From NCBI GenBank assembly GCA_963801165.1, contig CAWDDT010000005.1, forward strand, positions 256,001-320,000: a stretch of 64,000 nt of DNA, in the 5' to 3' direction. How positions within the stretch are numbered: the stretch's first letter is position 1; every line of letters starts with the position of its first letter. The translations under genes and the position numbers were made by a program. The notes below the pieces were generated by a model. The model made no database searches. It was not told the origin of the DNA and saw nothing but the letters and a program-made list of their open reading frames with translations. Shown here piece after piece: positions 10,933 through 34,639 of the stretch. The DNA is from an uncultured bacterium (GTDB taxonomy: Bacteria; Actinomycetota; Acidimicrobiia; Spongiisociales; UBA5794).

Positions 10933-10961
10933 AGAGCTACGGCCGATACGTCAAAGGCGAC

Positions 10962-11125
10962 CACCGCTCGTCCTTCCCCCCTCGTCCGGCCCAAGAGGGC
11001 CGCCCGATCCCCCCGAAATGGGGGGATCACTACTTGCTTCCAGCTCACAGCGCACCGCTCGTCCTTCCCCCCTCGTCCGGGCTACGCCCGGCCGATCCCC
11101 CCGAAATGGGGGGATAGCTACTTGC
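10962..11125. repeat. Two direct copies (91-bp offset) of a ~75-bp REP-like element with a GATCCCCCC-GAAAT-GGGGGGAT hairpin
   Basis: 10962-11037 and 11053-11125 share CACCGCTCGTCCTTCCCCCCTCGTCCGG and CCGATCCCCCCGAAATGGGGGGAT..CTACTTGC and differ in an internal small hairpin. Confidence 0.9.
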
Positions 11126-11430
11126 CCCCAACAGCCGTTCTCGGGCCGCAAGAATTCAGACCGGTGTCATGTTGCCAACATCTCTGTATCAAGTGGGCCC
11201 TCTACCGTGTCTCTTGTTAGGGGGACAGGGCATGGGATCGGCCGCCAAGACCGGTCCCAACGCCCAAGAGCGCTCCGGTGCCGCAACGCCGGGGGCTCCA
11301 GGAGACGGGTGGGCGATACGCTCCTCGCCCGGCGGGTACCGCACGACCTGCCGGCATCGAGGATCGCCGACCCCGGGTGGTAGGGCCGGTGACAGCCTCA
11401 CGACGTGAGGAAGTCACCGGCCGCTCCGTT

Positions 11431-24196: not shown

Positions 24197-25068
24197 GCTT
24201 CCCTCGCCCTCGGCACGATCCACTTGGTGTTGAGGCGCGGAAAGCCAAGCAGCATCCCCAAGCCGCCGAATAGAAGCAGGATGCCGAGCACACCGAAGAC
24301 CCAGGCAATCGGACTGTTCGTGGTCCTCGCCAGATCCCACGCCATCGCGGCAACCAGCCACATCGGACCGCCGTATCCCAGCCCGGCGAGGCCCTGGATC
24401 GACGCGCTGCGCATAGCGTCGTCTGCTTGTAGGTCATCGAGGTCGTCGAAGCTCTGGCGACGGCGTACGACAAACTCCTGAGCGATCCGCGTCGCAGCAA
24501 TGATGGAGAGCGCCGCCAGCGCTAGGCCTACGTACCAGATTGTGTCGTGACGTGTGGGGACGTGCTCGCCGGGAAGCCGAATGGTCCCGAGGGGAAGGAT
24601 GCTTCCGGCGCCGGCCATCAGAAGAGCGAGACCGGCGAGGATACAGTTGTCGATCCGCGTGAAGCCCGGCAGGTACTGACGCAGCTCTCGCGGCTCCACC
24701 GTCACCGAACCGCCGCTGGCGTGAGGACGGGTGACCTCAGCGAGAATGATGCCTGCGGCAAACCCAATCAGCCACCAGTAGGTGCCGAGATCGTCCATGC
24801 GATACGCGCTGCGCGTCACCCACATCCACACAAACGGGACGTTCCATCCAGCCAGGAATCCGATGGTGCGGATCCACCGGGTCCGCCTGAGATAGGCAGC
24901 AACACGGGGTCGGGTCTGTGCGCCTTTCCGTAGCCCGTGTCCGATCATCCACGAGTCGAGTGCCTTCTGGCTCGGATAAAGCACCGCACGGAGAATCCCG
25001 ACAACGGTGACCCCGCCGAAGAACATGAAGCTCACGATCAAGCTGTTGGTGTCATATCCATCTATCAT
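24193..25068 (-). CDS. Hypothetical multi-TM membrane protein
   Basis: Hydrophobic helices; ATGA coupling to the gntR gene. Confidence 0.75.
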   Translation of the reverse strand: MIDGYDTNSLIVSFMFFGGVTVVGILRAVLYPSQKALDSWMIGHGLRKGAQTRPRVAAYLRRTRWIRTIGFLAGWNVPFVWMWVTRSAYRMDDLGTYWWLIGFAAGIILAEVTRPHASGGSVTVEPRELRQYLPGFTRIDNCILAGLALLMAGAGSILPLGTIRLPGEHVPTRHDTIWYVGLALAALSIIAATRIAQEFVVRRRQSFDDLDDLQADDAMRSASIQGLAGLGYGGPMWLVAAMAWDLARTTNSPIAWVFGVLGILLLFGGLGMLLGFPRLNTKWIVPRAREA

Positions 25069-25074
25069 GTCACT

Positions 25075-25098
25075 ATTGTATCAATGTATCGATACAAT
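25075..25098. promoter_or_regulatory. YtrA/GntR-type operator
   Basis: Palindrome ATTGTATCaatgtatcGATACAAT directly upstream of the operon start. Confidence 0.75.
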
Positions 25099-25118
25099 GC
25101 AACAGAAATTTGTCCACC

Positions 25119-25175
25119 TCTGGCGTTGATTCTGGCCGTCTATGTGCGCGTATCAACGCCAGAACTGAGCGGCTA
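25119..25175. repeat. Solo copy of the TCTGGCGTYGAT...ATCRACGCCAGA palindromic element
   Basis: tctggcgttgattctg...cgtatcaacgccaga...gcggcta, similar to 31107-31164 and in the same orientation. Confidence 0.85.
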
Positions 25176-26552
25176 CACGCCGTCCCAGCCAGCGAGACGG
25201 GCTGACAACCACCAGAACGCCATGCCTTTGCGGCGACAGTTGAACGGATGGCTGTGGGCGCAGCTCGAACCGAGGTCGGCGCAATCGTCGGGATGGGTCG
25301 AGCACCAGGTGCTGCACCATTCGCAGGCGTCGCTGGCGTCTGGGTAGAAGTTGCCCGCCGGGTCGTATTGCTCGATGTCGGCGAAATCGAACAGCACTCC
25401 CCCGGTGTCGAGCACATGCTGACGAACCTTGTCGTTGTTGGCATCGAGCGATGCGCTGCCGCCGTCGAGATGCCCGGTCATGTAGACGAAGGTCACATCC
25501 GGGTATTCCGTCTCCAGGGTCGTCATCGCTTCGAGGTAGGCATCGACATCGGTGTAGTCGCCCGACATCTCACCGCACCACGACCAGGCGAAGGCGTTCG
25601 CTTCGGGCACGTCGGCGAGAACCGACCGGGCCTCGCCCAGGTAGGCGGAGGCGTTCCAGGACCACCCGGAGTCGTAGCCCATGCGTAGCTCCGCGGGGGT
25701 CGTCTGAGGACCGATCTCTCGATACCACTTCTCGAACGACAGCCCCAGCCAGTTGTCGAGGTCCTCGGCGCCGGTCCAGATCTGGGTGCCGTGCGATGTC
25801 GACCCGTATGCCCAGATCACATCATCGGCGGCGGCCTCGAGCCATATCTCGGGGATGGCGTCGATATCGGCGGCATTGTGGTCCACAACGATCGCATCCG
25901 GGGTCTCCGGCGGCGGTGGCGTGATCGGGTCGAGGTCGAGAGCTCGGGCGAAGAACGACGCCATCTGGTCACGCTTGACCGGCGCGGTGGGACAGAACTG
26001 ATCGTTGGCAGGTGGGTTGCAACCTGCAGTGACACCGGCCCCGGCGAGTGCGTTGATACTTGCCTGGAAGATCGACGTGTCATCATCTGTGAAGTAGCCG
26101 GTGGATGTTGCCGGGTAACTGAAAGCTCGAGTGAGGAAAGCTGCCATCTGTTCCCGGGTCACCGAGGCGTCGGGGCAGAAGAGATCATTGTCGGGCGGGT
26201 TGCATCCCTTGGTGATCCCAGCAGCCGCAACCGCGTTGATGTCCGCTTCGAATACCAGGCCGTCGTCGTCTGTGAAGTAGTCGGTCGAGACTGGAGCCAG
26301 GTCGAGGGCCCGCTTGAGGAACGCAGCCATCTGGCCACGGGTGACGTTGCCGCTCGGGCAGTAGCGATCGTTGACCGGCGGATTACAGCCCCTGGTGATC
26401 CCAACGTCGGCGATTGCCTCGATGTTGGCCTCGTGGACGTTCCCGTTGTCATCGGTGAACGTGCCGCCGGGCGGTAGGGCGGCCACTGCCACTCCCGCAA
26501 CCATCATGCTGGCCAGCACCAGGACGAGTGGGCTCAAGATCCTCGTACGCAT
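25173..26552 (-). CDS. Secreted protein with three SLH-like repeats and a C-terminal hydrolase-like domain
   Basis: Signal peptide; repeats FTDD...I.A...GIT.GCNPP.ND.(Y/F)CP...VTR.QMAAFL.RA; C-terminal GSTSHG motif. Confidence 0.8.
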
Positions 26553-26728
26553 CGGCTCTCCTCAATCGCGCCATGGGTAACCCTGGCATAATCGACAGTT
26601 AGCCGCGATAGGTTTAGCCCAATTCCTACCGGATGTGTGGGCGGGCGGCGCCAACGACGATATGGTCTCCGGACAATTCCTCAGCAGGAGCTGGGAATTC
26701 CACAGGATCGAGCGCCGGCGCCGGCCAC

Positions 26729-27328
26729 CTATACGCCCGCCGTGAGAGCGCTTGTTCTCACGTGGGTCGCCTGGTCACGCAACGACGATGTGTCGTCGTA
26801 TGTCACCACTGCCCTCGTCTCGAGCCCGGTCGTTGGCTCCAGCAGCACCGCCAGAGTGTCCCCGGCGACGGTGGCTCCGAAACCCGCACGGGCGCCGGCG
26901 CCAAAGGCTCCCTGCTCGGCGTGCCACAGGAGCATGATCACCCGACTCGACCTCGTATCGGCCCAGTCCCCGGCGGTGACCCCGAGGCTGCGGTGGAACC
27001 CGGCGACGGCGGCGGCGGGAACCGATCCGTACTCACAGGTACCCGTCACCGGCGCGGATGCGTCAGCCAGAAACAGACGGGCAGTCTGGGCCAAGTAGGC
27101 ACATCCCGACGCCGGGTCCACGACCTCCTCGTATCCGATTGTCGTGACCGCGGTTGGCTCAACACCCGCCATCACCGCCGCCACCGCGGCGTGTTGCGCT
27201 CGATCGAGGTCGATCGCCGCCTCGGCATTCCCCGTGCCCTTGATCAGGGCGACGAGCAGCATCGCCACCAGGGTCGCTGCCACCACCACGATGCGAATCA
27301 CCACAGCCCGCATTGTTGCCCGGTCCAT
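26729..27328 (-). CDS. Hypothetical membrane-anchored or secreted protein
   Basis: GAGGAG RBS; N-terminal hydrophobic helix. Confidence 0.55.
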   Translation of the reverse strand: MDRATMRAVVIRIVVVAATLVAMLLVALIKGTGNAEAAIDLDRAQHAAVAAVMAGVEPTAVTTIGYEEVVDPASGCAYLAQTARLFLADASAPVTGTCEYGSVPAAAVAGFHRSLGVTAGDWADTRSSRVIMLLWHAEQGAFGAGARAGFGATVAGDTLAVLLEPTTGLETRAVVTYDDTSSLRDQATHVRTSALTAGV

Positions 27329-27436
27329 TCGTCGCTCCTCACCTGCCCGAGCCTCTCACATACTGTTCTCCGATGCCGCCGCCGCGGTTCCGGCGACCTT
27401 TGGGATAGGTGGGTTGCGTGAACGCCCGTTTCGGAC

Positions 27437-29849
27437 CTACAGGTGGCCACCCGATGCCGGACCGGGATCGATGAACACGGTCCGCCCATCGTCGGACAGG
27501 GCGACGCCATCGATCTCTCCCCCGGACGGATCGACGACCACAATCACCTCTTCGAACTCCGGGCCGGCAAAGCCCCTGAGCCAGTCAAGGTCGATACGGA
27601 GGCGCCTGTCCTGCGGATGGGTCGCCGGTTCGGGCAGTTGGGGCTCTCTGGTCGGCGCGACTACGTGGCGGTCGGGCTTCGCCTCGGGTACAGCCGGCTT
27701 CGGCTTGGGCCCGTGGACGATGTCGACCCCGAGCAGCCGAGTCAGGTAGTCGATCCCCGTGTCGTTCTGCATCTCGGCTACCGCGGTATCCGACCTTCTC
27801 CGCCACTCGGTGATCGGGAAGTTGCCGCCGAAGGCGACGAGGTTCACCCAGTTGCGCAGACCGTGCATCGTCTCGAGGACACGGGTCCAGCCTTCCTCGG
27901 TCACCGAGAACATCACCAGCCTCTGCACGTGGTCCCAGCGGGAGCCGGATTTGATGCGCTGTTCCTCCCAGTGGGTGAGCGCTCCACCGTCGAGGGACCC
28001 TGTCTCCATCTGTGTCTCGAAGCAACTCCCGGCTCCACTGGTCGAAGCCCGGTCCCATCACTATGTCTTCACGAAAGCGGCAGAGCGCGGCGTACTGACC
28101 GTCGAGGATCTCGTCGTACTCGTGGCTGGTGGCACGTAGGTCGAGGTCCCTGACCTCGTTGTTTTGCTGTGCGACATCAACCGCACGATGTGGTCTCGCC
28201 TGACCGCCTCGGACCGGGCGCGGGTTGCTCGGACCTTGGGTGACGACGATGTCGTCCTCGAGTGAGGCGAAGAACATGCTCTCGCCGGGGTCTCCCTGCC
28301 TACCCGCCCTCCCCCTGAGCTGATCGTCGACCCTACGGCTGGCGTGTCGCTCAGTGCCGATCACACACAGCCCTCCGAGCCGCACCACCGCGTCGTGCTC
28401 GGACTGGTCCGCACCGCCGAGCTTGATGTCGACGCCGCGCCCGGCCATGTTGGTCGCCACGGTCACCGCGCCGATCCGACCCGCCTCGGCGACGATGGCC
28501 GCCTCCGCAGCGTGGTGCTTGGCGTTGAGCACCTGATGTTTGATGTCGATGCCCCGCAGCCGGGCGCTCAGATACTCGGAGTGCGCCACCGTGGTCGTCC
28601 CGATCAGCAGAGGCTGCCCGGTGGCGTGTCTGGCGACGATCTCCTGCACAACCGCGTCGTACTTCTCCTCGGCGGATGCATACACCCGGTCCTCCTGGTC
28701 GACCCGGATCACGGGCCGGTGCGGAGGAATGGCCACGACGTCGATGCCGTAGGTGTCGCGGAACTCTAGATGGGCAGGCTGTGCAGTTCCCGACATGCCG
28801 ACCAGCGTCTCGTAGCGGGAGAAGTAGCTGCGGACGGTGATCTGCGCCAATGGCCGCGAGTCCTCCCGTATCTCGACGCCCTCTTTCGCTTCGACCGCCT
28901 GATGCAGGCCATCGGTCCACCGCCTCCCCGGGAGGACACGTCCGGTGAACTCGTCGACGATGCGGACCCGGCCACCCGTGACGACATAGTCCCGGTCACG
29001 ACGGACCGAGCAGCGCGCCCGCAGCGCCATGTGAATGTTGGCGCCTGCCGCAGAGCTCGGATCGGACATCGCTCCGGTACCGATCGATCGCTCGACCCTT
29101 TCGATACCCCTCTCTGTCAGCCATGCGGTGCGCTGCGCATCGTCGACCGCGAAGTCCACGCGGCGTACGAGGCCTGACACGATCCGGGCCGCATCGGCCA
29201 GGCCGGCAGGATCAACGGGCTCCCGCTTGGTCAACACGAACGGTATCCGGGCCTCGTCGAGCAGTATGAAGTCGATCTCGTCGACGAGTGCCGTGGCGTG
29301 GCCCCGCTGCATACGCGAGCCGGCCGTCAGGGTGTCGCGCAGATAGTCGAAAGCAAGCTCCCGGGCAGTGGCGTAGGTCACGTCACAGGCATACGCCGCC
29401 TGCTTGTCCAGCCGGCTCTTGGTGGGGCTGGTGACCCCGACGGTGACGCCGAGGTACTCGTAGAGTGGGCGCATCCACTCGGTGTCACGCCCGGCCAGGT
29501 AGTCGTTGGCGGTGGCGATGTGGACCGGGCCTTCGGGGACCAGGGCATAGGCCGCCAGCGCGGCGGCGAGCGTCTTTCCCTCGCCCGTGAGCATCTCGAT
29601 GGCGTGCCCCGAGGCAAGCGCCGCCGCACCCAGCATCTGCTCGTCGTGTGGTCGTTCGCCGATGGTACGGACGGCGGCGACTCGGGCACGCGCCAGTCGC
29701 TCGGCGAGATCGTTGGTTGGTGGTAGCAGCTGCAACTGCTGGTCGGTGAGTTTGGTCAGCTCAGGGGCGAGCTCGTTGGCATCTTCGAGCGTTCGGTAGA
29801 GCCGGCGTGGCGGCGGCCCGTTCAAGGCACGCCGGAAGTCGATGGGCAC
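27437..29849 (-). pseudogene. secA: SecA paralogue (SecA2-like), interrupted by an apparent frameshift near 27960-28057
   Basis: MLTGEGKT, ANDYLA.RD, DEID..LLDEAR, GLHQAVEAKE, GMSGTA, VLNAK, ATNMAGRG.DI, RRVDDQLRGRAGRQGDPG; the wing/scaffold-like segment (W..VLETM..LR..V.L.AFG..FP..E) lies in another frame (27437-28009). Confidence 0.8.
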
Positions 29850-30115
29850 AATGGTCTCCTCAGGTCGAGGCCCCAGCGGGGCGTCAGGCTGTTGCCGATA
29901 GAGGAGTGCCCGGTGGCGACGACAATCGCCGTGCCAGCCAGCTGCGCATGTGCTGAGCTGATGGGGTCTCGGCGGATTCGTGATCGCCGGACGTGATCCC
30001 GGGCCCCAGGAGAGGACGGCAGGAGTACGCCGCCTCCACATCGACCAGCACAAAGGCAATGGTCCAAAGTGCCGCGGCGACAGTGCGCACAACGGTGTTC
30101 ATCACGATCGCGAAC

Positions 30116-30172
30116 CTAGCGCTTCTGGCGTTGATACGCGCGACGATCTCGGTCATTATCGACGCCAGAACG
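30116..30172. repeat. Left palindromic inverted repeat of the DUF559 cassette
   Basis: CTAGCGCTTCTGGCGTTGAT...ATCGACGCCAGAACG; close match to the reverse complement of 31107-31164. Confidence 0.9.
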
Positions 30173-30216
30173 GCAAGGGTATTCACTCTCTGTCGCCTCG
30201 ATGTCACTGTGGTGGA

Positions 30217-31164
30217 GTGTCGGGACGAGAAACATTGCTCAACGAGATTGCACGAGATCAACGAGGTATCTTCACCGTGGCGCAAGCGCGGGCTTGCGGG
30301 TTCGCTCGGCGTACCGTCGCTGCCAGGGCTGCTCACGGCCGGTACGAGCAAATACACCCCGGAGTGTACGGCCTCGCAGGATCGGAGGAGACCTGGCACC
30401 GGCAGGTTACTGCTGCGGTCCTGTCCGCAAAGGTGCCATCGGCGGCGTCACATCAGACAGCGGCCTTCCTGTGGGGCATGACCGACCGTTGCCCCGAGCA
30501 CATCGAGATTGTCACACGACGCCACGTGCGTTTGGCACGATCCGCATTCGTGGTCCACGAATCCAAGGACCTTGACGAAAGCGACATCCATCTCGTTGAC
30601 CGCATTCCCACAACATCTCCAGCACGAACTCTCGTTGACCTGGGCGCCTCCGCACGCCTGGGCGTGGTCGCCAGATGCTTCGACAGCGCGCTCCGTGCGA
30701 AGCTCGTGTCCGTTGCAGAGGTCGACCAGATGGTCCGACGGGTTGCCCGCAAGGGCCGCACAGGGGTTGGCACCATCCGCCCGCTCATCGAGGAGCGGCT
30801 CCGTTGGCAATCAATCACAGAGAGCAGCTTGGAGGATCGGTTCCGGGCACTGCTGGACGGTGCCGGCCTGCCGCTACCGACAAGCCAATACCAGCTCTTC
30901 GAAGCCGACGGCGATTTCGTGGGGCGGTACGACTTCGCCTACGAAGGGTGCGCGGCAATCATCGAGCTCGACAGCGAGCGCTTCCACATGGATCCCGGCT
31001 CATTCCAGCGGGACCGTGAGAAGCAAACCCGTGCCCAGATGCTCGGTTGGACCGTGTACCGCTTCACCTGGCAAGACCTCACCACCCGACCGGACATGGT
31101 CATCAGCGTTCTGGCGTCGATTCTGACCCGAAATGACGCTCGTATCAACGCCAGAAGCGGCTAG
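30217..31164 (+). CDS. AbiEi-like N-terminal wHTH plus DUF559/Vsr-like PD-(D/E)xK nuclease protein
   Basis: A.DQRGIFT..QA...G, HPGVY, SHQTAAFLWG, PTTSPARTLVDL, ESSLE, DFAY.....IELDSERFH, DR......GW.VYRFTW. Confidence 0.85.
   Translation: MSGRETLLNEIARDQRGIFTVAQARACGFARRTVAARAAHGRYEQIHPGVYGLAGSEETWHRQVTAAVLSAKVPSAASHQTAAFLWGMTDRCPEHIEIVTRRHVRLARSAFVVHESKDLDESDIHLVDRIPTTSPARTLVDLGASARLGVVARCFDSALRAKLVSVAEVDQMVRRVARKGRTGVGTIRPLIEERLRWQSITESSLEDRFRALLDGAGLPLPTSQYQLFEADGDFVGRYDFAYEGCAAIIELDSERFHMDPGSFQRDREKQTRAQMLGWTVYRFTWQDLTTRPDMVISVLASILTRNDARINARSG
31107..31164. repeat. Right palindromic inverted repeat of the DUF559 cassette
   Basis: CGTTCTGGCGTCGAT...ATCAACGCCAGAAGCGGCTAG; the terminal CTAG provides the stop codons on both strands. 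Confidence 0.9.
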
Positions 31165-31841
31165 ATCAGGTCCAGAAGCTCCTCCAGGGTCTTGATCTCG
31201 TGGGTGATCGCGGCGTCCGGACCGGGTTGCTTACCGTCGGGGTTGTACCAGCAGGTGGCGATGCCGTAGTTGGCGCCGCCCTTGATGTCGGAGGCGAGGC
31301 TGTCGCCGACCATGAGCGCCGTCTCCTTTGGCGGATTGCCCAGCATGTCAAAGGTGATATCGAAGACTTCGGGATGTGGCTTGGCGACACCTACCTCGGC
31401 GGAGATGACGATCGCGTCAAAGAACCGCTCAAAGCCGAACCGGGCGATCTGCGGGCGTTTCACCTCGCTGAGCCCGTTGCTGAGCAGCGCCAGCGTGGCC
31501 AACGGCTCGAGCTTCTCGAGCACCTCGATCGTCCCCGGGTATAGGTCACCGAAGGTGGCGAGACCGGCGATGTAATCCTCCGCCATCTGCGCCACATCGC
31601 CGTCGCACCCGAGCTGTCTCACAAGTAGCTCGAACCGGCGCTCGCGCACCGCATCGGGTGGGATCTCGCTCTGCTCGACCTGCTTCCACAGACCGCGATT
31701 GATCTGCTTGTAGATCGGAAAGTGCTCCATCGGGTTGGAGACCCCCTGGTTGCGCAGCGTCACCGCAAAGGCTTTGCGCTCGGAGGCGGCGAAGTCGAGC
31801 AGGGTTGAGTCGAAATCGAGCAGAATCGTGGTGTAGGCCAT
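31161..31841 (-). CDS. YjjG-family HAD nucleotidase
   Basis: LDFDSTLLDF, SNG, ISAEVGVAKPHP, MVGDSLASDI.GG. Confidence 0.88.
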   Translation of the reverse strand: MAYTTILLDFDSTLLDFAASERKAFAVTLRNQGVSNPMEHFPIYKQINRGLWKQVEQSEIPPDAVRERRFELLVRQLGCDGDVAQMAEDYIAGLATFGDLYPGTIEVLEKLEPLATLALLSNGLSEVKRPQIARFGFERFFDAIVISAEVGVAKPHPEVFDITFDMLGNPPKETALMVGDSLASDIKGGANYGIATCWYNPDGKQPGPDAAITHEIKTLEELLDLI

Positions 31842-32107
31842 CGGGTTGCCAGTGTGCCACAGCCCAGCGCGCTTCTAACCGGTGACAAGCTCGGCCGACG
31901 GATGACGCACGGCCACAGTGGCCGCCAGCAGAGTACAGAACCTATCCCGACCAGCACAGACAACCAGATCTCGCTCGATAGTGAGCACCTCGTCGTCCGC
32001 TCGAGAGCGGCACGGCTGCGCTCGGCAGGGCAAACACTCGCTGTGGCGCAGACGTGTATTCCAGATACTGCTAGGGGGGAACCCAGCTTGGGTTTGCATA
32101 CGTCACA

Positions 32108-33871
32108 ATGTGGATGATGAGGCGTCAGAGTCGGTGGTCGTTGCTTGCTGCTTTGCTGGCGCTTGCCGTGTCGGCTTGTGGCGTGTCGGATGGCGCGCCC
32201 TCTGTCACCGAGTCGGAGACCGGGCGGGTTGTCGGCCACGAGGTCGAAGTTGATGCGTTCCGCGTGGATGTAACCGAGCAGGCGACTGCTGTCTTCGTGG
32301 TGACGGGAACCGTTCCTTCTTCCTGTTACGAGGCAGTCTTTGGCTTCGAGGAGCCATCTAGCGACGGGGTCATGATCGGTTCTACGGAGTCTTTGTTCGA
32401 TCCGACGTGCCGCGACGAAGGCGCCGCGGAGTTCTCGGTGTCAATGGAACTCACCGACCTTGCCCCGGACGATTATGTGGCTCGCCTTGATGAAACGTTC
32501 GAGGCACGGTTCTCGATTCCTGATAAGGCGGCCGACGAAGCGGCACAGGATTCGGCAGCCGGCAACGTTCCCGGGGGTGCCCCGGTTGTCATGGCCGATT
32601 GGGCCGCGTCCCCGTTCGAGGGAATTGTCCAGAGCTCAGATGTGGTCATTGTCGGGACGATCCAGACTGTTGACCCAATCACCAAGTGGAGCACACCGGA
32701 CGGTGCACTCGAGCCAACCTACAGCAGCGGCGACATGCCGGGCGGTCTGCCCGAAGAGTGGCAGGAGCTCACAGTCTCAGTCGACCAGGTGATCGTGGAT
32801 ATCCGAGGTTCTGTATCCACCACACCCGTGCTTGTGCGCTACCAGGTAACCCAACCCGGCTACCAACCAATCAGCGTGTCACAGCTGGGAGCACAGATCC
32901 TGGTGTCGGCGTTCTTCTCTCGGGTGCCGTATACGGATGGTTCGATCGTGGAGCAACTGACCCTCGACCCGCAAGGCACCTACCTGGAAACCACCACCGG
33001 TGACATGGCGCAATTGTTTAGCGTCGTCGATGGTTCCTACTACAGCGCCCGGGGAAGAGGACAAAGCGATTGCAGCGAGGCCGATCTCGTCACTCTCGAC
33101 GAGCTCGTCACCAGAGCAACCGGTCCAAGCGCTGACAAAACCAAGTGGCTGGGCTATGGAGAAGAACCATCCCCCTGTCCCACTGCCGCCGTTCCGGCCA
33201 CGGGTGAGTTGGTGGTGCCTTCGTGCCAGGACAACGCCATGTGTCCCCTTGCGTTTGTTCTCAACGACGTGTCCTACACGGTGAGCTGTGCCGCCATCCA
33301 AGAGTCGGCGGTAACCGACGACATAGTCGGCAGCGGCGACTTCCACGGCGACAATGTCACGGTCCATCGCATCGACGGGGTCGACGATTCGGTGATGGTG
33401 GCGCTCAGTGTCCCGGGCGGCTTCTGTTCGGAGAACGACCCTGACGAACGGCACACTCCATGGAGCATGGCATTTGCCGACGGAGCCAACGACGAGCAAC
33501 TCTCGGACGCAGTCTGCCAAGTCGGTGAGCTCTCTGCCGCACAGCGACTCGCCAACGGATGTCATCTCGGGCAAGAACTCCTGACCTGCGGCTCAGGACC
33601 CGGGTTTCCCCCCGATGTACCCGACGATCTGACCGTTTACCCAGAACCAACCGACAGCTTCGGTGCCGATATCGCCGCTCTCCTCGGGACAGACGATCCA
33701 GACGAACTCGTCGGCTGGCACGTCATCGTCGAAGAACGACAAAGTGACGGGAGCTACATCCAACTCCTGCTTCGTGAAGACCCCAACAGCCGTGAGCTGC
33801 AGTACCTACTCGACGGCAGCGCCGAAACCTTTGACGCGCCGCGCCGCTGCGAGCCCGAAGCGCTCGACTAG
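32108..33871 (+). CDS. Multi-domain putative lipoprotein
   Basis: Lipobox LAVSAC after a basic and hydrophobic signal; acidic, Cys-paired extracellular sequence. Confidence 0.7.
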   Translation: MWMMRRQSRWSLLAALLALAVSACGVSDGAPSVTESETGRVVGHEVEVDAFRVDVTEQATAVFVVTGTVPSSCYEAVFGFEEPSSDGVMIGSTESLFDPTCRDEGAAEFSVSMELTDLAPDDYVARLDETFEARFSIPDKAADEAAQDSAAGNVPGGAPVVMADWAASPFEGIVQSSDVVIVGTIQTVDPITKWSTPDGALEPTYSSGDMPGGLPEEWQELTVSVDQVIVDIRGSVSTTPVLVRYQVTQPGYQPISVSQLGAQILVSAFFSRVPYTDGSIVEQLTLDPQGTYLETTTGDMAQLFSVVDGSYYSARGRGQSDCSEADLVTLDELVTRATGPSADKTKWLGYGEEPSPCPTAAVPATGELVVPSCQDNAMCPLAFVLNDVSYTVSCAAIQESAVTDDIVGSGDFHGDNVTVHRIDGVDDSVMVALSVPGGFCSENDPDERHTPWSMAFADGANDEQLSDAVCQVGELSAAQRLANGCHLGQELLTCGSGPGFPPDVPDDLTVYPEPTDSFGADIAALLGTDDPDELVGWHVIVEERQSDGSYIQLLLREDPNSRELQYLLDGSAETFDAPRRCEPEALD

Positions 33872-34033
33872 TCCGACGACGCGGCGCATCCGTTCACCGC
33901 CACAGGGCCAAGAGCGAGACCTCATTCAGCATCTCAGAGGCAGCAGATCCCGGCCCCACCCAGGATCGTCAGGTATCGGTCGAGCGCACATTTCGCCAAG
34001 TGTCCGAGATCGGCAGACTTCGATGGCTGTCAC

Positions 34034-34639
34034 TCAAACCAGCTCACGCGCCTCTTCGAGGTTCTCCTTTGCCTCGTTGAGGGCGGCGACGGATACGAGT
34101 AGGGCGGCAAGCGGGTCTGCCCACCACCATCCGAAGGCCGCGTTCGCGGCAAGACCGAGCAGCACACCGAGGGCAAGCGCCGCATCGAGAAGCGACATCC
34201 GGGCCTCCGCCGATAGTGGCTCGCTGTGGAGATGTGCGCCCGTCGCCCGTTTGGCCAACCCGAGCAGGAGCATGGCGAGGACGGTGATTGTCATATAGGC
34301 GATGCCCCACGGCGACTCGCCCGGCACCGCATGGGTTGCGAGCGCCCAGATCGCCCCGGCGGAGACGACCAGCGCCAACCCGGCAAAGGCAAACGCGACG
34401 AGACGCAAGGCAAGAGCAGTGACCCGGTCGCTGTCTCGCCCGGGGTGCCGCAGGTGCCAGACAACGACCCCCGAGGCGAACAGCTCCACCATCGTGTCCA
34501 GCCCGAATGCGACCAGGGCAAGAGAGGCAGCGGCGATACCCAGCGCGATCGTGATCGTCATCTCGACCACGTTCCAGCCGATCGTCAGGTACTCGAGTCG
34601 AACGGCACGTTTCTCGAGATCTTGCTTCTGGTCGGTCAT
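34034..34639 (-). CDS. Short CDF-type cation transporter (TM domain only)
   Basis: LEYLTIGWNVVE, SLALVAFGLD..VE, GWWWADPLAAL. Confidence 0.82.
   Translation of the reverse strand: MTDQKQDLEKRAVRLEYLTIGWNVVEMTITIALGIAAASLALVAFGLDTMVELFASGVVVWHLRHPGRDSDRVTALALRLVAFAFAGLALVVSAGAIWALATHAVPGESPWGIAYMTITVLAMLLLGLAKRATGAHLHSEPLSAEARMSLLDAALALGVLLGLAANAAFGWWWADPLAALLVSVAALNEAKENLEEARELV

Follow-up and report, generated by a model that had tools for sequence, protein, structure and literature searches.

For repetitive extragenic palindromic (REP)-type repeats a single cause is well described, namely the RAYT transposase-like genes, whose products are thought either to excise and reinsert REPs or to copy them. 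Homing endonucleases, for their part, are known chiefly from introns, inteins and phages. AbiEi-family proteins are described as binding inverted repeats in their own promoters (PMC7319586) and I-Bth0305I as a homodimer with a footprint of ~60 bp on its pseudopalindromic target (PMC3239194). Here we analysed a stretch of 64,000 nucleotides (referred to as the window) from an uncultured bacterium of the Acidimicrobiia (Actinomycetota; assembly GCA_963801165.1, contig CAWDDT010000005.1, positions 256,001 to 320,000), in which a nuclease gene and two palindromes occupy positions 30116-31164. This locus is a member of a large Actinomycetota family of cassettes of ~1.0-1.1 kb each, densest in Acidimicrobiia, in which an AbiEi-type module is fused to a Vsr/EDxHD-type nuclease and two copies of a palindrome particular to the gene lineage, 45-65 bp long, stand on either side of the gene. 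The architecture and the association between gene and repeat are solid. A very common actinobacterial gene of unknown role proves in this way to have a fixed partner sequence, and a direct, testable hypothesis becomes available for proteins that join AbiEi_4 to a DUF559-like nuclease. The partnership of nuclease and repeat family looks undescribed; our literature search, with subscription journals outside its coverage, found no paper that connects REP-like palindromes with DUF559, with fusions of AbiEi and a nuclease or with Vsr-like genes.

Architecture of the cassette in the window and of its protein

A repeat search in the window picked out two arms of 53 nt at 30120-30172 and 31107-31159 that are 83% complementary, and a gapped alignment stretched this match, CTAG within, to a left copy of 57 nt (30116..30172) and a right copy of 58 nt (31107..31164). 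A preliminary description of this DNA had placed the nuclease gene between inverted, self-palindromic ends, and the alignments agree: the inverted score was 69, with a maximum of 26 across 100 shuffles (z 23.5), and since the direct-orientation score was just 28, the two copies are truly inverted, an orientation that also fits the loop and the T/C asymmetry in the arms. Each copy is in itself a hairpin with 13-nt stems, as had been claimed (arms 30123-30135 and 30158-30170 on the left, 31109-31121 and 31144-31156 on the right), with single-stranded DNA folding energies of -14.2 kcal/mol (left, z -2.1) and -11.7 kcal/mol (right, z -1.3), both z-scores being modest. At position 30142, in the loop of the left palindrome, the contigs of all four metagenome runs have one base fewer.

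CTAG stands at both outer ends (30116-30119 and 31161-31164), and the right one carries two stops, the TAG of the nuclease gene (31162-31164) and, as CTA on the minus strand (31161-31163), that of the convergent HAD hydrolase gene; the right palindrome sits within the 3' end of the nuclease gene, whose plus-strand open reading frame (ORF) runs through the whole copy, all of which the preliminary description had read correctly. The distance from the end of the left palindrome to the inferred start codon downstream is 45 nt, and on its other side the palindrome begins 14 nt from the start of a small minus-strand ORF. Promoter-like hexamers (TTGATA and CATTAT, 17 nt apart; 30131..30159, plus strand) are located inside the left palindrome and directed toward the gene, and a mirror site in the right copy (31148 to 31120, minus strand) points back into it; two such sites compare with a mean of 0.3 in 50 shuffles, as a consensus match only. 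No T-run terminator was found, and an Rfam search of 24800-31600 with E-values up to 1 gave no match.

A third, solo copy at 25118..25164, in the orientation of the right copy (hairpin -12.8 kcal/mol, z -3.7), lies 8 nt off the stop of an SLH-domain ORF (25173-26552, minus strand) and has no adjoining nuclease gene. An arm-motif scan of the window's own genome (G000; 4.55 Mb, 98% complete, estimated contamination 5.6%) returned three copies of this palindrome type, all within the window. The idea that the window-type palindrome forms an abundant REP family was dropped on account of this count.

The gene between the palindromes (30217..31164, plus strand) encodes 315 residues from an inferred GTG start, a TTG at 30235 being possible as well, and its product consists of an AbiEi-like DNA-binding module (residues ~1-200) and a Vsr/EDxHD-like nuclease (~215-300), with a tail (residues 297-315) encoded by the right palindrome. 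The assignment to AbiEi-N plus DUF559 made earlier stands in its first part, as AbiEi_4 is matched by Pfam at an E-value of 8e-11 (AbiEi_1 remains below its cut-off) and PADLOC AbiEi models cover residues 5-203 (E 6e-34), and is borderline by sequence in its second, as DUF559 (PF04480) scores 19.4 bits alone and 20.9 bits together with same-frame neighbouring matches, at a curated cut-off of 20.6. MTES_1575 reaches 25.7 bits against a cut-off of 38.2, no NCBIfam family matches the protein and Pfam detects no transposase domain in it. The fold supports the nuclease assignment: in an AlphaFold2 (AF2) model computed with 29 homologues as input (mean predicted local distance difference test score, pLDDT, 91.3), Foldseek matched the last ~100 residues to the catalytic domain of I-Bth0305I (3r3p; template modelling (TM) score 0.78, target-normalised, root-mean-square deviation 3.1 A), to the Vsr structures 1cw0 and 1vsr and to the DUF559 structure 3hrl, to which profile matches were also obtained, in support of a relationship. 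Residues D239, E250, D252, H257 and D266 are invariant across the 29 homologues and align with conserved residues of 3hrl. The first ~200 residues matched the whole AbiEi antitoxin 6y8q (E 6e-7, ~200 columns) and Rv2827c (1zel).

Modelling of two chains supports pairing of the protein, as the predicted homodimer gave interface scores (ipSAE) of 0.46, 0.46 and 0.41 in three runs, with a best control of 0.09, at least 93% contact agreement and a partner pLDDT of at least 80. Of 30 solved homodimers used for calibration, 20 attained this mark, as did one of 23 monomers. The modelled interface is symmetric and is formed by residues 1-17, 39-42 and 53-58 of the N-terminal domain.

The protein shares features with two characterised groups. 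Like the AbiEi antitoxins of type IV AbiE systems (6y8q, 1zel), it has the whole two-domain fold within its first ~200 residues and a repeat upstream of its gene, where AbiEi proteins bind inverted repeats (PMC7319586). Unlike in AbiE systems, the nuclease domain is in the same chain and takes the place of an AbiEii (DUF1814) partner, which is absent among the called neighbours (the HAD gene, the small membrane ORF and a SecA-like gene), and the repeat recurs once downstream of the gene, with further copies dispersed in the genome. Like the EDxHD enzyme I-Bth0305I (3r3p), it carries a Vsr-like catalytic domain after an N-terminal DNA-binding region and combines a symmetric dimer, here a modelled one, with a long site, here a putative one (palindromes of 45-65 bp compared with a pseudopalindrome of ~60 bp). 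In contrast to I-Bth0305I, the cassette gene is free-standing and intergenic instead of residing in an intron or intein of a phage gene, and its DNA-binding part has the AbiEi fold.

Two paralogues are present in the genome, one intact (C11:403459-404343) and one frameshifted (C9:40669-41495), each beside its own, different palindrome; the paralogues are ~45% identical. Two short stand-alone DUF559 genes (C11:233057-233377 and C7:209506-209826; Pfam 113-115 bits) also occur there without an AbiEi part.

Palindrome-flanked cassettes and solo palindromes in related genomes

Homologous loci were surveyed by aligning 330 nt at the gene start (300 upstream, 30 inside) with 350 nt at the gene end in both orientations, an alignment score of at least 40 counting as a shared flanking repeat. 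Such a repeat was found in 23 of 29 loci from 41 related genomes; L015, the thirtieth locus retrieved, was left out because its flank was short. Among named Acidimicrobiia assemblies it was present in 50 of 58 loci, after removal of 22 of the 80 retrieved loci on account of short flanks or incomplete genes, while only 2 of 203 displaced-window controls at the same loci contained one. Other families and classes of the phylum had it in 15 of 40 loci. Homologues thus carry flanking palindromes of their own, as the preliminary description had predicted. Some loci belong to both of the first two sets (L046 is L002, for instance, and L057 is L005), and one locus from an unpublished genome (L012, G027) contributes a row to the 29-locus counts, the pooled passes and the 29-homologue protein alignment. 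A pooled pass, in which L003, L006, L015 and L027 were skipped for short flanks, comprised 85 repeat-flanked loci (20 + 50 + 15), and the repeat itself was a strong palindrome in 51 of these, compared with one of 425 gene-internal control segments. The palindrome generally ends 40-90 nt upstream of the start codon, and the proteins of different loci are only 30-70% identical. Overall, the family was found in 106 of 301 sampled Actinomycetota genomes (ten of them flagged unpublished), often with at least seven matches per genome.

Copy orientation was best described as direct in 56 of the 85 loci and as inverted in 29, so that the inverted arrangement of the window, proposed earlier as characteristic, is the minority form. 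At five loci of the direct type the copies are near-identical, including the asymmetric loop (55/56, 57/58, 51/52, 52/54 and 56/60 positions). The cassettes differ from insertion sequences and miniature inverted-repeat transposable elements in this prevalence of direct repeats, in the absence of a transposase domain and in that no conserved target duplication is visible at 12 aligned palindrome copies of the related genome G011. CTAG was likewise rejected as an element end or a target duplication, given the G011 copies and an orthologous cassette in G005 that has no CTAG at its HAD end; the right CTAG in the window is, on this evidence, the HAD gene's own stop, and the CTAG ends put forward in the preliminary description are not a general feature.

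The anatomy of the repeat was derived from 64 unique palindromes that share the most frequent outer arm. In these, positions 1-8, T[CT]T[GT]GCGT, hold 1-2 bits each, and positions 9-20 hold 0.15-0.8 bits and are still paired, by way of three to four Watson-Crick pair types; as selection demanded 15 of 20 paired positions, the pairing percentages are inflated, and the information content is unaffected. In orthologous cassettes across species the outer arm is common and the inner arm divergent, with the flanking copies agreeing within a species, and protein identity correlated with palindrome similarity (Spearman 0.45, reached by 0 of 500 permutations). A central promoter was rejected as a general feature, because TANNNT was present in only 12 of 53 palindromes (six on the gene strand, five on the other strand, one on both), and the AT fraction of the centre (0.49) exceeds that of the arms (0.42) as a modest effect.

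Solo palindromes are found well beyond the cassettes. In the window's own genome, the palindrome type of the frameshifted C9 paralogue occupies 17 sites in a pattern search and 21 in a BLAST search, of which one or two are doubtful, and that of the C11 paralogue ~7 solo sites, most solo copies being intergenic; at ~13 of 19 C9-type sites a gene 3' end lies within 25 nt, by crude gene calls. Scanning the 41 genomes for the C9-type pattern yielded 25 copies in G001, 17 in G000, 15 in G005, nine in G003, seven in G014, four in G006, one each in seven further genomes and none in 28; the pattern in reverse, used as a control, matched 0-1 times. The exact palindrome GCGTAACTGGCGGC-N4-12-GCCGCCAGTTACGC occurs in 12 copies in G011, three each in G001 and G012 and two in G009, and in zero copies in the other 37 of the 41 genomes; all four holders carry the cognate gene, and they may be close kin and hence not four independent observations. 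Repeats and genes are therefore not distributed independently, in agreement with the earlier proposal. In G011 the repeated unit measures ~50 bp, and five of the 12 copies, including both gene-flanking ones, are identical over 36 nt. For a solo palindrome of the same genome (L216, C28:18288-18623), the match to the cassette's upstream copy runs on for ~20-25 bases on the side facing the gene, as expected of a decayed cassette. Another solo copy, at C6:578749-578788 of G000, is a clean indel of ~40 nt that is missing at the orthologous site in G003, G005, G006 and G014. Next to this indel, a TCGAAC-N4-GTTCGA motif is conserved in a divergent promoter region (G000:C6:578790-578830 and L206-L209), and we take it to resemble the actinobacterial LexA box.

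Individual sites vary in occupancy between genomes and may be filled, hold a palindrome only, hold a remnant or be empty. At a site following an SDR-like gene, G001, G004, G006, G011 and G012 carry the cassette and G008 probably does; the G002 contig ends in a palindrome there, the palindrome of G000 is degenerate, G005, G007 and G014 have short arm-like remnants (by our reading) and G010 and G013 none. At the same site G009 has an array (L212, C1:196900-201200) of palindrome, SBP-family gene, palindrome, nuclease gene and palindrome, in which three copies of one palindrome separate the SDR-like gene, an 821-residue SBP_bac_5 protein and the nuclease gene; the palindrome beside the SDR-like gene was consequently rejected as a solo copy.

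The window locus itself varies too, and the gene is not fixed in place, as befits the candidate mobile unit of the preliminary description. A contig of the same assembly (C12, 6463 bases) is an alternative allele of window positions 26436-34051, 97-99% identical at its ends and 75-87% in the middle, a pattern that points to the assembly containing either a second strain or a recombined segment. Its homology to the window ends at 30107 and restarts at 31170, so that exactly 30108-31169 is missing, and in place of the nuclease gene C12 has 777 nt that belong to an unrelated repeat family. Neither the nuclease gene nor the palindrome occurs at seven other loci whose HAD protein is at least 55% identical. 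In G005, the same small ORF and the HAD orthologue (60% identical) enclose the orthologous cassette, which agrees with the window in the outer arm, differs from it in the inner arm and has a broken gene. The closest full-length homologue (71%) is that of G010, in a non-orthologous context that maps to C11:207.8-210.2 kb of G000, where G000 is without a palindrome.

These patterns resemble several known arrangements without coinciding with any. Like REPtrons, the cassettes usually comprise a single-copy gene flanked by its own short palindrome, with one repeat type per gene lineage, solo copies outside genes near gene ends and repeats that outlive the gene. They differ from REPtrons in that the protein is an AbiEi-like module with a Vsr-like hydrolytic nuclease and not an HUH/Y1 enzyme, and in that the palindromes exceed REPs in length (45-65 bp), occur in much smaller numbers (1-25 per genome) and are more often direct. 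No RAYT gene was found (Y1_Tnp, PF01797, had no match in the 98%-complete genome G000 and did match in control genomes). Of the REPtron-like system proposed earlier, the dispersed palindrome of its own and the non-RAYT protein stand, the inverted orientation and CTAG ends do not generalise, and recognition or spreading of the palindromes by the protein stays a hypothesis. Like EDxHD homing endonucleases, the family shows site occupancy that differs between genomes, in filled and empty forms; in contrast to homing endonucleases, the presumed target is intact on both sides of the cassette, and solo targets are multi-copy per genome. The likeness to integron cassettes and their attC sites lies in promoter-poor one-gene units and imperfect palindromes whose sequence varies with the pairing kept, and extends to the array in G009. 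Unlike integron cassettes, these are single and scattered, and their gene always belongs to the same nuclease family and is not varied cargo; at the window locus no integrase or attI context was seen, in an analysis that included no search aimed at IntI.

Proposed cleavage and recombination at the palindrome, and competing explanations

We favour a reading, at a probability of roughly one half, in which a dimeric protein binds and cuts its own palindrome and repair between palindrome copies serves to copy, delete and homogenise cassettes. The protein would dimerise via its N-terminal winged-helix domains, as modelled, and the dimer would bind its own palindrome with the conserved outer 8-10 bp of each arm as two half-sites. 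It would then nick or cut at the palindrome, and the break would be repaired by recombination between palindrome copies. Repair of this kind could copy the cassette into a solo palindrome in the fashion of a homing endonuclease; recombination between the two copies flanking a gene could delete that gene, with a solo palindrome remaining, and could also keep flanking copies alike. Binding at the upstream copy would probably also repress the gene's own promoter, AbiEi-like. We prefer this reading because AbiEi proteins bind inverted repeats (PMC7319586), because the closest of the characterised nucleases is a homodimeric homing enzyme whose site is a pseudopalindrome of ~60 bp (PMC3239194) and because a hydrolytic nuclease has no known means to transpose DNA alone.

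Several points weigh against binding, cleavage and recombination at the palindrome. The dimer binding, the cleavage and the recombination route are steps that we infer. With both flanking palindromes intact the cassette would stay cleavable, whereas classical homing insertion destroys its target, and pure homing cannot seed palindromes at new sites. Movement is slow, if there is any, since no near-identical cassette pairs were seen and the paralogues are old (~45% identical), and the presence of the cassette at the same site in G005, despite a HAD identity of 60%, speaks for long vertical residence. At the window locus, contigs from four metagenome runs span the filled form, and neither a joint nor an empty allele appears among them, although contigs can miss rare forms. 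Covariation of protein and palindrome would also follow from linkage alone. Palindromes evidently persist without an active gene, as G001 and G003 (77% and 66% complete) hold 25 and nine C9-type palindromes and no cognate gene was found in them, and as the C9-type gene of G000 is frameshifted. Finally, the position of the palindromes fits a terminator role: in the G009 array, and in G000 at C6:577409-578788, where the palindromes are of the C9 type, one palindrome follows each of three successive genes, an arrangement that looks like terminator use.

A serious rival, albeit an unlikely one in our estimate, remains that the protein spreads the solo palindromes. The system would then be a true REPtron analogue, with a protein that excises and reinserts or copies solo palindromes, a gene that is merely their single-copy, vertically inherited host, and solos that are products and not scars. 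Solo copies that outnumber cassettes ~10 to 1 or more, the presence of one cognate gene per palindrome type per genome and the long residence of cassettes at one site agree with this, as do the five identical G011 copies, the flanking two included. Copy numbers of 1-25 are, however, far under those of typical REP families, and Vsr-type hydrolytic nucleases have, as a family, no known strand-transfer chemistry (PMC3239194). The solos themselves speak both ways: the one at G000:C6:578749 is devoid of any cassette remnant, as a product would be, but precise deletion between direct copies would yield the same clean solo, and the G011 solo that keeps ~20-25 nt of cassette-internal sequence resembles a decayed cassette.

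Somewhat less probable still is that regulation accounts for everything, with an autoregulated single-chain defence or addiction gene in which an AbiEi-like repressor is joined to a nuclease effector that moves no DNA. The upstream palindrome would be its operator, the downstream one a terminator or second operator and the solos relics or extra sites. That the N-terminal two thirds of the protein form a full AbiEi module suits this explanation, given that the AbiEi family represses its own promoter through inverted repeats (PMC7319586), and the promoter-like site inside the left palindrome of the window suits it as well; in most loci, however, the palindrome lies 40-90 nt upstream of the start without promoter overlap, and the central -10-like motif is not general. 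Palindromes trailing successive genes are terminator-like in position, yet no T-run terminator was found. No AbiEii partner is present among the called neighbours, and regulation alone leaves unexplained both the 17-25 near-identical 46-bp palindromes at unrelated sites and the gain and loss of palindromes between species. Hardly credible, finally, is the proposal that the palindromes belong to the host, as terminators or REP-like elements with some other means of spreading, which the cassette merely adjoins or uses as safe insertion sites without specific recognition: although palindromes persist where the cognate gene is broken or not found and do sit at gene 3' ends, the same lineage-specific palindrome lies on both sides in 50 of 58 loci (2 of 203 controls), the exact palindrome type is confined to genomes with the cognate gene, the two flanking copies change together between species and the genome has no RAYT to spread them.

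If a dimeric nuclease does bind and cut its own palindrome, a broader and more tentative proposal can be attached to it, namely that the cassettes may constitute a new class of selfish element in which a Vsr-type nuclease with an AbiEi module uses the palindrome as recognition site, recombination homology and cassette boundary at once, and in which break repair would seed and maintain REP-like, terminator-positioned palindromes across Actinomycetota. If true, REP-type repeat families would have a second origin, one that does not involve HUH enzymes. Short palindromes at the ends of genes in high-GC genomes may also originate from the cassettes, and the naturally diverged pairs of protein and 50-bp site could serve the study and re-use of long-site DNA recognition. 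The palindromes further account for some assembly breaks: contigs start or stop inside them in G011 (C10, C11 and C30) and G002 (C17), and from these contig ends it follows that the repeats break short-read assemblies.

Neighbouring genes and other repeats

The cassette is followed by the HAD hydrolase gene (31161-31841, minus strand), convergent with the nuclease gene, and preceded by the small ORF with a hydrophobic N-terminus (29884-30102, minus strand), which is directly upstream of a SecA-like gene (27585-30092, minus strand) and is kept both in allele C12 and beside the orthologous cassette of G005. The SecA-like gene is an accessory copy; its sole close relative is the copy in allele C12 (85%), and the other genomes in the genus have only the housekeeping SecA, which is 44-48% identical to the window protein. 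Its use as a synteny anchor failed, as the gene is without an orthologue in the genus.

The repeat family that occupies the site in allele C12 (C12:4355-4950), where the window holds the nuclease cassette, is a compound one, composed of a hairpin TCGGACGGCC..GGCCGTCCGA followed by CCCCCCGAAATGGGGGG, and is also present in the window at 10952-11128. The TCGGACGGCC..GGCCGTCCGA hairpin has at least 20 copies in the genome, often as tandem units of ~88-170 nt. Elsewhere in G000, five identical hairpin-forming copies of 44 nt (CGGTCAGATGGCAGCG...) lie within 5 kb (C13:291860-296614) and are probably a repeated coding module.

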